A stretch of 64,000 bases of DNA from Escherichia coli (GCF_003334305.1 NZ_QOWS01000014.1); one strand, 5' to 3'. Positions 49,481 to 55,573 are shown, counted from the stretch's first letter. Numbers and translations are program-made. The notes: generated from the sequence alone by a model not told the origin.

Positions 49481-50932
49481 TCAACTAAACAACATCGCGA
49501 TTTTGCCGAGAGCATAACCTATAACCAGCACCGTTAAACTGATTTTGATAATGCTGGTAATGCTCTGTGGTTTTTCACCCTCATCATTTTTTTCTTCATG
49601 GTTTTCAGGTGTTGGCTCATCGACATCTTCATCCTCCGGCTCGAGTTTTACTTTCGTCAACAGCATCCGGGTGATAATGGCCTCTAATGGATGAGCATCT
49701 CCGCCTTCCAGCCTTGTATTAAGACGGGCCAGCATCTCTTGTTTCGGAAACGCTTCAAGTACTACCTGTTCCGCTACCCGATACAAATCCAGTAACGGTG
49801 AATCTTCTTCTGTCTCGCTACCGACTCTCGATTTCCACCACGCCCATGCTTTGCGTTTGAAGAATAACGACTCAATAAACGATTGACCTAACGGCGATAA
49901 TTTTCCGCTATGTAAAATTTCCGCCCATAACAGCCGCGTCCGGGCGCTCTCACCAGGAACATATTTCAGCGGTTGACCTTGCGCATCTACCATGCTCCGC
50001 GCTTCGATAACCATCACTAATAACGCGAAATAATCCGGGCAATGACGCTTGCTCCACTGCAACAACAAATTATCAGCTTGTGTAGATGGGTAACTTTCCC
50101 GGTACGCGCAGAGATCGGCAAGCAGGCTTTCCCCCTCGCCGCAGTACAACCTTTGAGCACACAAGTAATATCGGGCATCTTCGCTTTCTGGTTCTTCCAT
50201 TTGCCACTGTTTGGCTACAGGAATGAGTTCCGCCATACCTGTTTGCACCGAGCTGTACCAGCGCAACAGTTTGCGATGTAACTTTGCATCATCAGGAATG
50301 AACCACGGACCTTCCATCGCCAAAAACGCAGTGACGTAGTCAGGATGGTAACGGCAGCAACGTTCCAGCGCGAAGTAATACTCAACAGTCTGGTTCTGCA
50401 ACGCAACGGGATATTCCAGAAGGCTAAGGAAATCGAAACAATCACCAGCCTGAATGGCCTCAAGAAAAGCCTCCCTTTCTTCCTCATCCATTCCTTCGCT
50501 GTCATTAAACGAATGCCAGTTCAAACGCTCTGCCAGCAAAGAAGCACAATTTAATGAAAGATATCGCGCTTCTATAGCGATTGCACACAGCGGCCAGCGT
50601 AATTGATCGACATCCTCCATGTTCCAGGTATTTAATTGCTGAATAAATTTCTGCCAGGCGGAGGGCTGAAAACGATCACTTTCTGAATCCAGTAATGTCC
50701 TGAATGCACGCAGTATTTCATGTTCAGCGGCGGCATCTTTTTCTTCATCATCTGCTTCCTCGACAGGATTTACCGCCAGTCGCAGCGCCTCTTCATAGGC
50801 CTGGCGTAATGCTTTAAACCCCTGCGGATCGGTTTCGGGATGACATAACGGTAAGCGAGCAAGATAAGCCTGGCGGATAATGTCTATTTGCGTCGTGCTT
50901 TCAATTTCGAGGATTTGCCAACATGTTTTCAT
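49481..50932 (-). CDS. djlC: J-domain-like HscC co-chaperone DjlC (YbeV), 483 aa
   Basis: ORF-track protein [53 protein letters not shown]...; C-terminal hydrophobic helix ([17 protein letters not shown]); clear paralog of the ORF at 52301..53728. Confidence 0.9.
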
Positions 50933-51636
50933 AGGTCGCTCACATCCTTAAGCGTTACCGGGCATTCAGGCTGGACAGTTAATGGCTGCCAGGGAAGCGT
51001 GGCATAGAAACGATCGCTTCCCGCTGCCAGCTCTTCGAACATCCGACTCCCGGCGCTATCGTATTTGTACAGGGTTAGCGCCTCGCGTAGCGAAGTGTTG
51101 TCTTCGCACTGAGAAGATTGCCAGTAGAGACGTCCTAACGAATAGGCGGAAAAATAGTGCATCCAGCTGTGATAGTAATGGTGAGCTCGTACATAGACGC
51201 ACGATTGCAGCCATAAACTCTCTTCTTCCGTCAGCCAGTTGTTGAGCACACCGACCCGTGACAGAAACCCCATTCGAACATAATCCCAGGCTTTGATTCC
51301 CCCTTCTCCACAGCACATAGCGGTTTGGGCAACGAATTGGGTATAAATCAACCCTCTCTCCGAGCCACCAGCAATTAATGCTTTCCACTCTTCAGGGGAA
51401 GAGCGATGCCATGTCAGATATAAGCCAGCTAAATCATTGGCATGACCATCATCAGTCATCTGATAAATAGTCTGAATTAAATCATCACGATTATTTATTC
51501 CCCAGGATGATGAGAGATCGAATTCTTTTATCCCGGTATACATTTTTGGCGAGTCATGCGCGGGTTTGCAACCCTGATTAAGTATTTCCATGGGCGCAGA
51601 AAGCGCAAAAAGAAGATATTGTTCTTCCTTATTCAT
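50929..51636 (-). CDS. ybeU: DUF1266-family protein YbeU, 235 aa
   Basis: ORF-track protein [33 protein letters not shown]...; 4-bp overlap with djlC; paralog of the ORF at 53725..54432. Confidence 0.9.
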
Positions 51637-51736
51637 TTGTTAATAATCCCTTAAGTGCATTAACTGACTACTTTTTATTATTGATGAGTATAAACTTGAC
51701 GCTTTCAAAATAAAAAGAAAATCGAAGCATTCACAT

Positions 51737-52291
51737 ATGAATAAAAAATTAATGTATATATTCGCAATATTTATAGTTGCAGCAATTACCTGTATTAGCC
51801 AACCCAAGAAAACAACGTTGCGTGATAAAGCCATGGTGAATTATGCCTTTGATTATTTAAGCTCACCGGGCAGTCTACCGTTTACCACGGCGGCCACGGA
51901 GCTTTCCGCGATTCATGGTCACTCAACGTCGCAATATCGCCTTGGAGAATTTTATCTTCATGGTAGCGACGGTAAACCACTGGATTATACACAGGCGAGA
52001 TACTGGTATGAGCAATCAGCAGAACAGGAAAATCCGCGCGCACAAAGCAAACTGGGGTGGATCTACCTCAAAGGTCTGGGGGTCAAACCCGACACCCGTA
52101 AAGCAATTCTCTGGTATAAGGAAGCAGCTGAACAAGGGTATGCTCATGCTCAATATACTTTAGGTTTGATCTACAGAAATGGCTCAGGTATTAATGTTAA
52201 CCATTATGAATCTCAAAAATGGTTAAAACTGGCCGCCAAACAACATTACAAAAATGCGGAAAGATTACTTGCCGGGCTTCCCGCACATTAA
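51737..52291 (+). CDS. ybeT: Sel1-repeat protein YbeT, 184 aa
   Basis: ORF-track protein with N-terminal hydrophobic segment and Sel1-like repeats ([36 protein letters not shown]). Confidence 0.88.
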
Positions 52292-53728: not shown

Positions 53729-54432
53729 AGGTCGCTCATATCCTTAAGCGTTTCCGGGCATGCAGAATAGTAAGCCAATGGTTGCCAGGACAAGGTAGGG
53801 TAATACGCATCATCACTGGCAAATAATTGATAAAACATATCATTGCCGGAATCGTCGTATTCTTTACGCGCTAAGAATTCGCGTAATAACTGCAGATGAT
53901 CATCTTCGGGAGACTGCCAATATTGCCGACCAAAGGTATAACCGGCAAAGTATTGCCGCCAGTTACGATAATAACGTAGAGCCCGTAGATGAATGCGCGA
54001 CTGGATCCATAGACTTTCTTCTTCGCTCAACCAGTTATTAAGTACGCCCATTCGGCTTAAAAAACCCATCCGGACATAATCCCAGGCTTTAATTCCTCCC
54101 TCACCACAGCATTCGGCGGTGCTGGCGACAAATTGCGCATAAGCCTGACCTTGCTCATTTAGTTCAGCAAGATAGTCACGCCATTCACATGGCGAATAAC
54201 GAAACCAGCGGTGATAAAACCCTGCCAACCGAGCGGCATGACCGTTATCGATCATTCGGTGAATTGTGCGCAGCAGGTCATCACGGGCATCAATTCCCCA
54301 GGAGGAAGAAAGGTCAAAAAAGCATGTACCTAAATACATTTTGGGTGATGAATGCGAAGGTAAACAGCATTCATTGCGTATTTCCATCGGAGTGGAAAGT
54401 GCAAACAATATTTTTTGCGACTCCATGTCCAT
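53725..54432 (-). CDS. ybeR: DUF1266-family protein YbeR, 235 aa
   Basis: ORF-track protein [33 protein letters not shown]...; 4-bp overlap with djlB; ends ...TLKDMSDL like YbeU (...TLKDVSDL). Confidence 0.9.
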
Positions 54433-54595
54433 ATAATTTATCCTTAAATATTCATTAAATGAATATTAGCCGCATTGCGAGGCTCGTTTATTTATACTTT
54501 TCTGACGCGACATAATACGCATAAAATAAGGCTTACGCAAAAATGGAACACATAAAAATATAATATGTTTTATCTGCAACCATAAGGAAATGATA

Positions 54596-55573
54596 ATGAT
54601 TTTCACGTCAAGTTGCTGCGATAATTTATCAATAGATGAGATTATCGAACGTGCTGAAAAAGGCGATTGCGAGGCTCAATATATTGTTGGGTTTTATTAT
54701 AATCGCGATAGCGCAATTGATTCTCCGGACGACGAAAAAGCCTTTTACTGGCTGAAGCTGTCCGCTGAGCAAGGTCATTGTGAAGCACAGTATTCCTTAG
54801 GGCAAAAGTATACCGAGGATAAAAGCCGTCATAAAGATAATGAGCAAGCCATCTTCTGGCTGAAAAAAGCTGCCCTACAAGGCCATACTTTCGCTTCCAA
54901 CGCCCTTGGCTGGACACTGGATCGTGGAGAAGCCCCCAATTATAAAGAAGCGGTTGTCTGGTATCAGATAGCCGCGGAGAGCGGAATGTCTTATGCGCAA
55001 AATAATCTTGGGTGGATGTACAGAAATGGCAACGGAGTCGCAAAAGACTATGCGCTGGCATTTTTCTGGTACAAACAAGCTGCATTACAAGGCCATAGTG
55101 ACGCGCAAAACAATCTGGCCGATCTTTATGAAGACGGAAAAGGCGTTGCTCAAAACAAGACACTCGCCGCATTCTGGTATTTGAAAAGCGCACAGCAGGG
55201 TAATCGGCACGCCCAGTTTCAAATTGCATGGGATTATAACGCTGGCGAAGGGGTGGACCAGGACTATAAGCAAGCGATGTACTGGTATCTGAAGGCTGCC
55301 GCTCAGGAAAGCGTCGGCGCTTACGTCAACATCGGTTATATGTATAAACACGGACAAGGCGTTGAGAAAGATTATCAGGCTGCCTTTGAATGGTTTACGA
55401 AAGCCGCTGAATGCAATGACGCCACTGCCTGGTATAACCTGGCCATTATGTATCACTACGGAGAAGGAAGACCTGTCGATCTCCGACAGGCTCTCGACCT
55501 GTATCGTAAAGTTCAGTCATCCGGAACCAGAGATGTCAGTCAGGAAATTCGTGAGACTGAAGATTTACTGTAG
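54596..55573 (+). CDS. ybeQ: Sel1-repeat protein YbeQ, about 325 aa
   Basis: ORF 54590..55573 translation carries at least seven Sel1-like repeats (AQYIVGFYY, AQYSLGQKY, ASNALGWTL, AQNNLGWMYRNGNGV, AQNNLADLYEDGKGV, AQFQIAWDY, AYVNIGYMYKHGQGV); start ambiguous between ATGs at 54590 and 54596. Confidence 0.88.
   Translation: MIFTSSCCDNLSIDEIIERAEKGDCEAQYIVGFYYNRDSAIDSPDDEKAFYWLKLSAEQGHCEAQYSLGQKYTEDKSRHKDNEQAIFWLKKAALQGHTFASNALGWTLDRGEAPNYKEAVVWYQIAAESGMSYAQNNLGWMYRNGNGVAKDYALAFFWYKQAALQGHSDAQNNLADLYEDGKGVAQNKTLAAFWYLKSAQQGNRHAQFQIAWDYNAGEGVDQDYKQAMYWYLKAAAQESVGAYVNIGYMYKHGQGVEKDYQAAFEWFTKAAECNDATAWYNLAIMYHYGEGRPVDLRQALDLYRKVQSSGTRDVSQEIRETEDLL

Follow-up and report, generated by a model that had tools for sequence, protein, structure and literature searches.

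The described system closest to the locus analysed here is the Hsp70 HscC of Escherichia coli with its J-proteins DjlB and DjlC (Hsc62/Hsc56; Kluck et al. 2002, reviewed in PMC8215388), and the two are identical. A stretch of 64,000 nucleotides of E. coli DNA (GCF_003334305.1, NZ_QOWS01000014.1; below, the window) contains the system of this third E. coli Hsp70 in the gene order gltIJKL-rihA-hscC-djlC-ybeU-ybeT-djlB-ybeR-ybeQ-ybeL-leuS, and shares with the known system its genes, the HPE J-domain, the tail anchors and the 50% identity between DjlB and DjlC. That identity, and the closeness of both genes to hscC, had already been published (PMC8215388). DjlC stimulates the ATPase of HscC while DnaJ, CbpA and HscB do not; this activity was reported for DjlC only and is assumed for DjlB by homology (PMC8215388). 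An original prediction made from the sequence of the window had called both proteins established co-chaperones of HscC, which holds for DjlC and, for DjlB, goes beyond the report. Both J-proteins are tail-anchored, with insertion into the inner membrane demonstrated for DjlC, and they are the only HscC partners named in the reviews of 2021 (PMC8215388) and 2026. The HPE variant of the HPD motif has been noted (PMC10410713; also a 2026 review). Sensitivity to Cd2+ was described for hscC and djlB djlC mutants and a role of HscC in ultraviolet resistance was mentioned, with the clients and purpose of HscC discussed as possibilities only in the 2021 review (PMC8215388).

Less is understood of HscC than of either of the other two E. 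coli Hsp70s. The published accounts describe an Hsp70 with two J-proteins, and no mention was found in them of YbeU or YbeR, of a J-protein form of approximately 900 residues anchored by DUF805, of the age of the duplication or of the Sel1 neighbours. No paper linking DUF1266 or Sel1 genes to HscC was found in a literature search of incomplete coverage, in which a prior mention may have been missed. New, as far as that search reached, are the grouping of DUF1266, Djl and HscC as a triad, the long form of the J-protein as the ancestral one, the dating of the duplication and the behaviour of the locus as an indel.

Comparison across genera showed that the conserved unit is a cassette of three genes, in which a DUF1266 gene (ybeU or ybeR in E. 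coli) overlaps the start of djl and a convergent hscC completes the set. Loci were collected from one genome per species, anchored on YbeU-like DUF1266 genes and seeded by two peptide patterns; an alignment spanning DUF1266 widely (A1) proved too diverse for scanning the loci, and the narrower alignment A2 was used. The resulting 78 loci came from Escherichia, Klebsiella spallanzanii, Leminorella, Rahnella, Pragia, Erwinia, Pectobacterium, Limnobaculum, Gilliamella, Pseudomonas, Marinobacter and Bowmanella, together with one contig labelled Paenibacillus. Open reading frames (ORFs) in the window and the loci were called mechanically, and all ORFs of the 78 loci were searched with the seven window proteins in 10-kb neighbourhoods.

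A Djl homolog stood directly after DUF1266 in 76 of the 78 loci; in the other two (L009 and L040) no Djl ORF was called, and the available sequence stops at the DUF1266 match. An HscC-type Hsp70 lay within 10 kb in 74 of the 78, usually immediately downstream, and was convergent in all but Marinobacter, the loci that had none nearby being those of Leminorella, Bowmanella (a 1.9-kb contig), L009 and L040. The DUF1266 and djl reading frames overlapped by 4 nt in 76 of 81 pairs, by 1 nt in four and by 10 nt in one, and this overlap with a convergent HscC-type Hsp70 recurred in 13 named gammaproteobacterial genera. When all neighbouring ORFs were clustered, DUF1266, Djl and HscC were the only families common to several genera. 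The flanking genes were constant inside a genus and different between genera and between Pseudomonas groups, with stable flanks in Gilliamella and within the Pseudomonas groups. In two distant lineages, DUF1266 proteins with 23-26% identity to YbeU kept the arrangement of DUF1266 followed by a J-protein of 920 residues and faced by the Hsp70. The triad of Dickeya fangzhongdai has been listed, uncommented, as three consecutive species-specific genes (PMC6329079).

Against the NCBIfam models E. coli HscC reached 385 bits for DnaK, where the cut-off is 648, and 379 bits for HscA, where it is 709; lying below both cut-offs, it is therefore neither DnaK nor HscA. The Hsp70s of the other loci scored 590-740 bits against E. 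coli HscC and were also below the DnaK and HscA cut-offs. By this comparison DUF1266 is obligately coupled to Djl and, with Djl, to HscC. The prediction that Sel1, DUF1266 and J-like proteins act together is partly supported: DUF1266 is tied to djl and hscC across genera and distant lineages, and Sel1 falls outside the conserved unit. When the possible independence of these genes from hscC and djl was examined by co-occurrence, DUF1266 proved linked and Sel1 unlinked in most lineages. A DUF1266 gene that was simply a genomic passenger, co-transcribed with djl and functionally unrelated to the chaperone system, would be in keeping with the literature, where no paper studying YbeU or YbeR was found. 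It would make it very hard to explain a 4-nt overlap in 76 of 81 pairs and 13 named genera, maintained down to 23% identity, under purifying selection and with joint duplication of the two genes, and its probability is considered close to negligible.

Some of the loci require separate comment. In the Leminorella loci the pair is followed by Iso_dh and Aldedh genes. Pragia and Limnobaculum have these genes too, with hscC behind them; in Leminorella richardii (L003) a hipBA-like pair is found past Iso_dh/Aldedh in place of hscC. The contig labelled Paenibacillus sp. USDA918EY (L009) ends in a ybeU fragment with 98% identity to ybeU of E. coli; the most likely source is contamination or chimeric assembly of the contig, and not a Firmicute copy.

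The J-protein of the cassette occurs in a long and a short form. The HPE motif was present in 77 of 81 Djl proteins, and as HPET in both DjlC and DjlB, with a Pfam DnaJ match that was weak for DjlC (E = 0.036) and clearer for the long form of Erwinia (1.6e-5). Outside the group formed by Escherichia, Salmonella, Citrobacter and K. spallanzanii the protein was 880-970 residues long (Pfam DnaJ and DUF805). Its HPE J-domain leads into an extended helical part, and two to three hydrophobic segments lie in a DUF805-like domain at the C-terminus. E. coli DjlB and DjlC align with the first 310-420 residues of this form, and the short forms are monophyletic (100/100 bootstraps). The short Djl of approximately 480 residues, comprising J-domain, a putative TPR-like domain and a single tail anchor, is therefore a truncated derivative of the long form that gained the single anchor. 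The comparison places the shortening in an ancestor of Escherichia, Salmonella, Citrobacter and K. spallanzanii, and the tandem duplication later. The putative likeness of the non-J region to TPR proteins is moderate and at the level of the fold, and no TPR family was detected in Pfam scans of DjlC or the long Djl forms.

A DUF1266 protein translationally coupled to the J-protein in every lineage sampled is a candidate for the missing specificity factor or client of HscC. The interpretation preferred here, to which slightly better than an even chance is given, is that DUF1266 is a specificity or regulatory subunit that works with the membrane-anchored Djl, with HscC being recruited; the chance that the HscC system has in DUF1266 an obligate third subunit, so far missing, is judged about even. 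Translational coupling at the ATGA overlap would yield DUF1266 and Djl in approximately equal amounts. DUF1266 would then dock onto the TPR-like cytosolic domain of the anchored Djl, for which the fused-chain model described below gives indirect support. The HPE J-domain would recruit HscC-ATP and trigger hydrolysis, and HscC would clamp a client on the inner side of the membrane, with DUF1266 acting as a substrate-selecting or regulatory co-chaperone subunit, and the two E. coli pairs would provide two targeting specificities for HscC. The membrane-tethered targeting role previously proposed is a reasonable reading of the locus, as both Djl proteins have membrane-anchor tails. HscC function is made directly testable through YbeU and YbeR.

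YbeU matched Pfam DUF1266 (PF06889) with an E value of 3.9e-44 over model positions 2-175 of 175. The AlphaFold2 model of YbeU was all-alpha, with a mean predicted local distance difference test (pLDDT) of 91 and a predicted template modelling score (pTM) of 0.89. A fold search with YbeU gave no informative relative in the PDB, and the matches in AFDB50 were other DUF1266 proteins only. Conserved positions of the family include H65, D118, R121, R127, E139 and several tryptophans, and the extreme C-terminus is conserved as PxSLxE[FY]DWS, ending TLKD[VM]SDL in Escherichia. Among the 39 distant multi-domain DUF1266 proteins scanned, eight were fused to Cu_amine_oxidN1 and five or six to TPR repeats, with SLH also found; because of these fusions DUF1266 would fit better as a binding module than as an enzyme. 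A chain in which YbeU was fused to DjlC gave a pTM of 0.74 over 743 residues, with 74 residues of pLDDT <50, and residues 191-210 of YbeU were of higher confidence in this model than in the solo model.

Two database entries matched YbeU closely. The AlphaFold database entry A0A2X3M2D5 (E. coli, 627 residues, 'Hsc56 co-chaperone of HscC', 99% to YbeU over 233 columns) was dismissed as a natural fusion and taken as a frameshift artefact at the ATGA junction. Entry A0A077ZGN2 of Trichuris trichiura (932 residues, 'DnaJ-like subfamily C member 13'), with 95% identity to YbeU, looks like bacterial contamination of the worm assembly.

The main rival to the subunit interpretation is that DUF1266 is a dedicated client, as IscU is for HscB/HscA, which Djl presents, HscC remodels and which itself carries the downstream activity. 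The genomic evidence serves this alternative equally well, and HscA/HscB/IscU is a precedent for a specialised bacterial Hsp70 and J-protein encoded beside a single client. DUF1266 has a strongly conserved core, and its conserved tail PxSLxE[FY]DWS / TLKDVSDL could be a presented peptide. The discussion of HscC clients as possibilities only (PMC8215388) also leaves a place for one. On the other hand, DUF1266 is fused to TPR, Cu_amine_oxidN1 and SLH domains without an Hsp70 context, which fits a binding module better than an obligate client; no fold relative points to an activity, and the conservation of the tail may be partly due to the ribosome-binding site of the overlapping djl. The dedicated client is accordingly regarded as rather unlikely.

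Several points weigh against the assignment of DUF1266 as a subunit of the HscC system. The hscC-djlC-ybeU segment was missing in approximately 19% of complete E. coli genomes (found in 4,369 of 5,426, at a coverage of at least 80%, the threshold for all population counts given here), and the locus is therefore dispensable. Leminorella (L003 and L010) has the DUF1266-Djl pair and no hscC within 10 kb. The counts are anchored on DUF1266 and not on HscC genes, so the share of HscC genes accompanied by the pair falls outside them, and seeding with two patterns may have under-sampled distant or atypical arrangements. No natural fusion of DUF1266 to a J-domain was seen, a DnaJ match being present in 0 of the 39 multi-domain DUF1266 proteins. 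The pTM of the fused chain is an indirect readout, and the tether can bias the packing.

The features of the locus in the window are listed below, REP standing for repetitive extragenic palindrome. The coordinates and orientations of the original prediction were all correct.

47751-49421, plus strand: hscC, HscC-type Hsp70 of 556 residues, named HscC in RefSeq.
49422-49480, no strand: spacer between hscC and djlC, 59 bp, GC-rich, palindromic and REP-like, sequence GCCGGATGCGGCGTAAATGCTGCATCCGGC.
49481-50932, minus strand: djlC, 483 residues, J-domain with HPE, putative TPR-like helical domain, acidic linker and C-terminal tail anchor.
50929-51636, minus strand: ybeU, 235 residues, DUF1266; its stop overlaps the djlC start in ATGA at 50929-50932.
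51637-51736, no strand: divergent promoter region between ybeU and ybeT, 100 bp, AT-rich, 27% GC.
51737-52291, plus strand: ybeT, 184 residues, Sel1 repeats and an N-terminal hydrophobic segment, Escherichia lineage only.
52301-53728, minus strand: djlB, 475 residues, paralog of djlC with like architecture.
53725-54432, minus strand: ybeR, 235 residues, DUF1266, paralogous to ybeU; its stop and the start of djlB share ATGA at 53725-53728.
54433-54589, no strand: divergent region between ybeR and ybeQ, 157 bp, AT-rich, 29% GC.
54590-55573, plus strand: ybeQ, 327 residues, eight Sel1 repeats, without a signal-like segment.
47668-55641, no strand: block present or absent in E. coli, 7,974 bp.

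The 3' end of djlC lies 59 bp beyond the end of hscC, and the spacer at 49422-49480 between these convergent genes may terminate transcription in both directions. Plain scans for promoters and terminators returned fewer sites than shuffled controls and were set aside. E. coli strain A7 was 100% identical to the window across 8 kb.

Pairwise alignment bore out the paralogy claimed for the two djl genes (50% identity over the full length, E = 6e-157) and for ybeU and ybeR (59% identity, gapless, E = 1e-103). Both DUF1266/Djl junctions read ...GACCTATGAAAA with a stop/start overlap of 4 nt, TLKD[VM]SDL forms the C-terminus of YbeU and YbeR, and the hydrophobic tails of the Djl proteins were confirmed by Kyte-Doolittle maxima over 19 residues of 1.99 (DjlC, residue 464) and 2.39 (DjlB, residue 450) in the last 30 residues. 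A Sel1 gene does diverge from each pair, ybeQ 157 bp from ybeR and ybeT 100 bp from ybeU. The DNA identity of the two coding pairs was 57-62%, with third positions at 38-44%, near saturation, and the synonymous divergence (dS) between paralogs was saturated. The claim that the whole three-gene module had been duplicated was not supported by the comparison. The Sel1 proteins aligned at 32-37% in several registers and were not collinear, the divergent intergenic regions (ybeU-ybeT and ybeR-ybeQ) had no similarity to one another, and Salmonella and Citrobacter share both pairs and ybeQ yet are without ybeT. From the lack of collinearity and the absence of ybeT in these two genera it follows, as far as the data show, that the duplicated unit would be the two-gene DUF1266-Djl pair and not a three-gene module.

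In Salmonella and Citrobacter enshiensis the order is ybeL, a ybeQ ortholog, DUF1266-Djl-DUF1266-Djl and a convergent hscC, the ybeQ orthologs having 49-59% identity and the same position as in E. coli. K. spallanzanii has a single DUF1266-Djl pair with a short Djl form and no Sel1 gene. Neighbour-joining placed the copies proximal to hscC from Escherichia, Salmonella and Citrobacter in one clade, with bootstrap values of 94/100 for DUF1266 and 100/100 for Djl, and the E. coli paralogs were sisters in 0/100 bootstraps. Since the proximal copies group across genera and the E. coli paralogs are never sisters, the tandem duplication of DUF1266-Djl is older than the split of the three genera, with both copies retained, and through this duplication a single HscC serves two old paralogous pairs. 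The ratio of nonsynonymous to synonymous substitution (dN/dS) between E. coli and E. whittamii was 0.03-0.13 for all seven genes, indicating purifying selection. The long separate retention of the two pairs in E. coli points to two specificities.

Additional genes were seen at two of these loci. Salmonella has an extra gene of 412 residues between hscC and rihA (L083:16082-17320) that has no Pfam or PADLOC match and is not in the E. coli window. In Escherichia sp. MOD1-EC7003 the interval between ybeL and ybeQ (L005:3648-5986) contains one more Djl-like gene, the third and a divergent one, which encodes an HPE J-domain and a tail anchor and is split into ORFs of 93 and 344 residues with 22-47% identity to DjlB/C; no DUF1266 gene precedes it, and an unassigned ORF of 321 residues without a PADLOC match follows.

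The Sel1 proteins behaved differently from the DUF1266-Djl pairs. Sel1 was matched in all four sequences scanned, YbeT included, and YbeQ contained seven repeats of Pfam Sel1 (PF08238) at E <=0.001 and one weaker repeat. YbeT and YbeQ, of 184 and 327 residues, aligned with 32-37% identity in several alternative registers. That YbeT is a collinear, truncated copy of YbeQ was not supported, as repeat-by-repeat scores were non-collinear and several diagonals were equal or better, and an origin of the Sel1 proteins from the C-terminal region of the long Djl was rejected by hhalign (A6 against the YbeQ/YbeT alignment A5), which gave a probability of 0.3%. YbeT has a conserved N-terminal basic-hydrophobic segment resembling a signal or anchor, and YbeQ does not. 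From this segment YbeT is probably exported or membrane-anchored with its repeats in the periplasm, apart from the cytosolic DUF1266, Djl and HscC, and YbeT and YbeQ are probably in different compartments. The GC content at third codon positions of ybeT was 0.38, the minimum of the locus. Orthologs of YbeT were detected at identities of at least 71% only, in Escherichia and one near lineage, and the most divergent ybeT stood in a single hscC-djl-DUF1266-ybeT unit with different flanks. Some real linkage of ybeT to the proximal pair therefore exists, confined to a narrow lineage.

The model of the original prediction, in which Sel1, DUF1266 and J-protein form one module that was duplicated whole and acts with HscC, draws on several of these observations. 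The arrangement occurs twice in the window, a common AT-rich region lies between the divergent ybeT and ybeU-djlC, which are both under the influence of SlyA and H-NS (PMC5797941), and the YbeQ orthologs of Salmonella and Citrobacter diverge in the same place. The lineage with approximately 71% identity keeps hscC-djl-DUF1266-ybeT in different flanks, 5-6/39 distant DUF1266 proteins are fused to TPR repeats, and purifying selection acts on ybeT and ybeQ (dN/dS 0.09 and 0.11). Against the model, no Sel1 ORF was present within 10 kb in any non-Escherichia locus of the 78-locus search, including that of K. spallanzanii with its short Djl. The Salmonella and Citrobacter pairs have no ybeT between them, and YbeT and YbeQ, of unequal length, are similar at the level of repeats without collinearity. 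The YbeT repeats are probably periplasmic, away from their supposed cytosolic partners, and strains of the sequence type 131 (ST131) kind retain ybeT without djlB, ybeR and half or more of ybeQ. Taken together these make the model improbable. Sel1 genes were found only where Escherichia, Salmonella and Citrobacter have short Djl forms, and appear to be later, local and lineage-specific neighbours, ybeQ being common to the three genera. Either ybeT was gained later in Escherichia, or a three-gene duplication was followed by loss in the Salmonella/Citrobacter lineage, for which nothing positive was seen.

In the E. coli population the whole 8-kb block was present in 3,692/5,426 complete genomes and djlB-ybeR in 3,708/5,426. 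Strain 7/2 has a clean junction between the stops of rihA and ybeL, with a 43-bp REP-like palindrome (L002:8958-9000) between these genes, and the indel corresponds exactly to 47668-55641 of the window. The 43-bp palindrome of island-free E. coli resembles the hscC/djlC palindrome at 49422-49480. ST131-type strains have a deletion of 2,807 bp (window 52429-55235; L001:7103-7568) in which the whole of ybeR is lost together with the greater part of djlB and the 5' two-thirds of ybeQ, leaving hscC, djlC, ybeU and ybeT intact. In strain EC21Z-014 (NZ_CP101274.1) an IS4-like element, ISVsa5, lies in djlB, which is annotated as two 'J domain-containing protein' features.

The GC content of the locus was 0.43-0.50 compared with 0.52 for the window. 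Expression of ybeT and ybeU-hscD is raised by SlyA overexpression and these genes are in the H-NS regulon (PMC5797941), and in a Δhns mutant of enteroaggregative E. coli (EAEC) 042 at 25 °C a DUF1266 gene was up 308-fold (PMC7582179). The block at 47668-55641 is an H-NS-silenced accessory indel, and this silencing together with its dispensability helps to explain the weak phenotypes under standard laboratory conditions.

Accessory behaviour was also seen outside E. coli, with the triad of Erwinia persicina on plasmids of 130-165 kb. On plasmid p_Cp2 (L086) of this species the annotation breaks Djl into four pieces (a J-domain, two hypothetical proteins and DUF805) and the Hsp70 region consists of ORFs of 266-280 residues only, so that this copy is decaying; decay or loss was also seen in Pectobacterium (L048) and Pseudomonas (L045). 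Carriage by mobile elements was rejected for the matches in phage collections, which were unannotated fragments of 1.4-2.6 kb, and for the E. coli 'plasmid' matches, which were mostly Mb-sized or chromosome-like records; the E. persicina plasmids alone look real. The PADLOC-DB v2 search gave no component matches beyond weak repeat-level noise on the Sel1 proteins, PHROGs gave generic Hsp70, Sel1 and J-domain families only, and no defence genes recurred in the 78-locus neighbourhoods.

These data bear on a further alternative, in which the triad would belong to conflict or stress-island systems and serve, for instance, in phage defence or the handling of membrane-active effectors, with the Hsp70 ATPase switching the DUF805-type domain of Djl and DUF1266 as the sensor. 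The triad occurs patchily and changes its flanks as one unit, being found on the 130-165 kb E. persicina plasmids among other places. Decay or loss is recurrent (the E. persicina Cp2 plasmid, Pectobacterium L048, Pseudomonas L045 and the E. coli indels), the GC content is under the window average, and the 308-fold increase in Δhns EAEC 042 at 25 °C indicates strong silencing (PMC7582179). Set against this are the lack of any PADLOC model match beyond repeat noise, of recurrent defence genes in the neighbourhoods and of any paper found tying HscC to phage defence. The phage-collection matches amount to short unannotated fragments (1.4-2.6 kb), the position is stable in Escherichia, Salmonella and Citrobacter, and neighbours are stable in the Pseudomonas groups and Gilliamella. 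A conflict system of this kind is therefore very improbable. The broader proposal of a self-contained, horizontally mobile conflict or stress membrane machine, with the enterobacterial tail anchor as a remnant of DUF805 and the Escherichia Sel1 proteins as lineage-specific accessories, is only marginally less so.

Apart from the HscC system itself, the HscA/HscB/IscU system is alike in having a specialised Hsp70, its own class C J-protein and an adjoining small partner handled by the J-protein. It differs in that no relationship between the proteins extends past the Hsp70 and J-domains, in the solubility of HscB, and in IscU, whose function and Hsp70-binding motif are both known; for DUF1266 neither is on record. 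The eukaryotic TPR J-proteins and receptors DNAJC7, DNAJC3/p58IPK, TOM70 and Sec72 differ from Djl, which has no sequence-level TPR match and shows no evidence of EEVD-type peptide binding. E. coli DjlA resembles DjlB and DjlC in recruiting an Hsp70 to the inner membrane as a class C J-protein with a membrane anchor. It differs from them in the N-terminal position of this anchor, its C-terminal J-domain, its partner DnaK and the lack of a DUF1266 partner.

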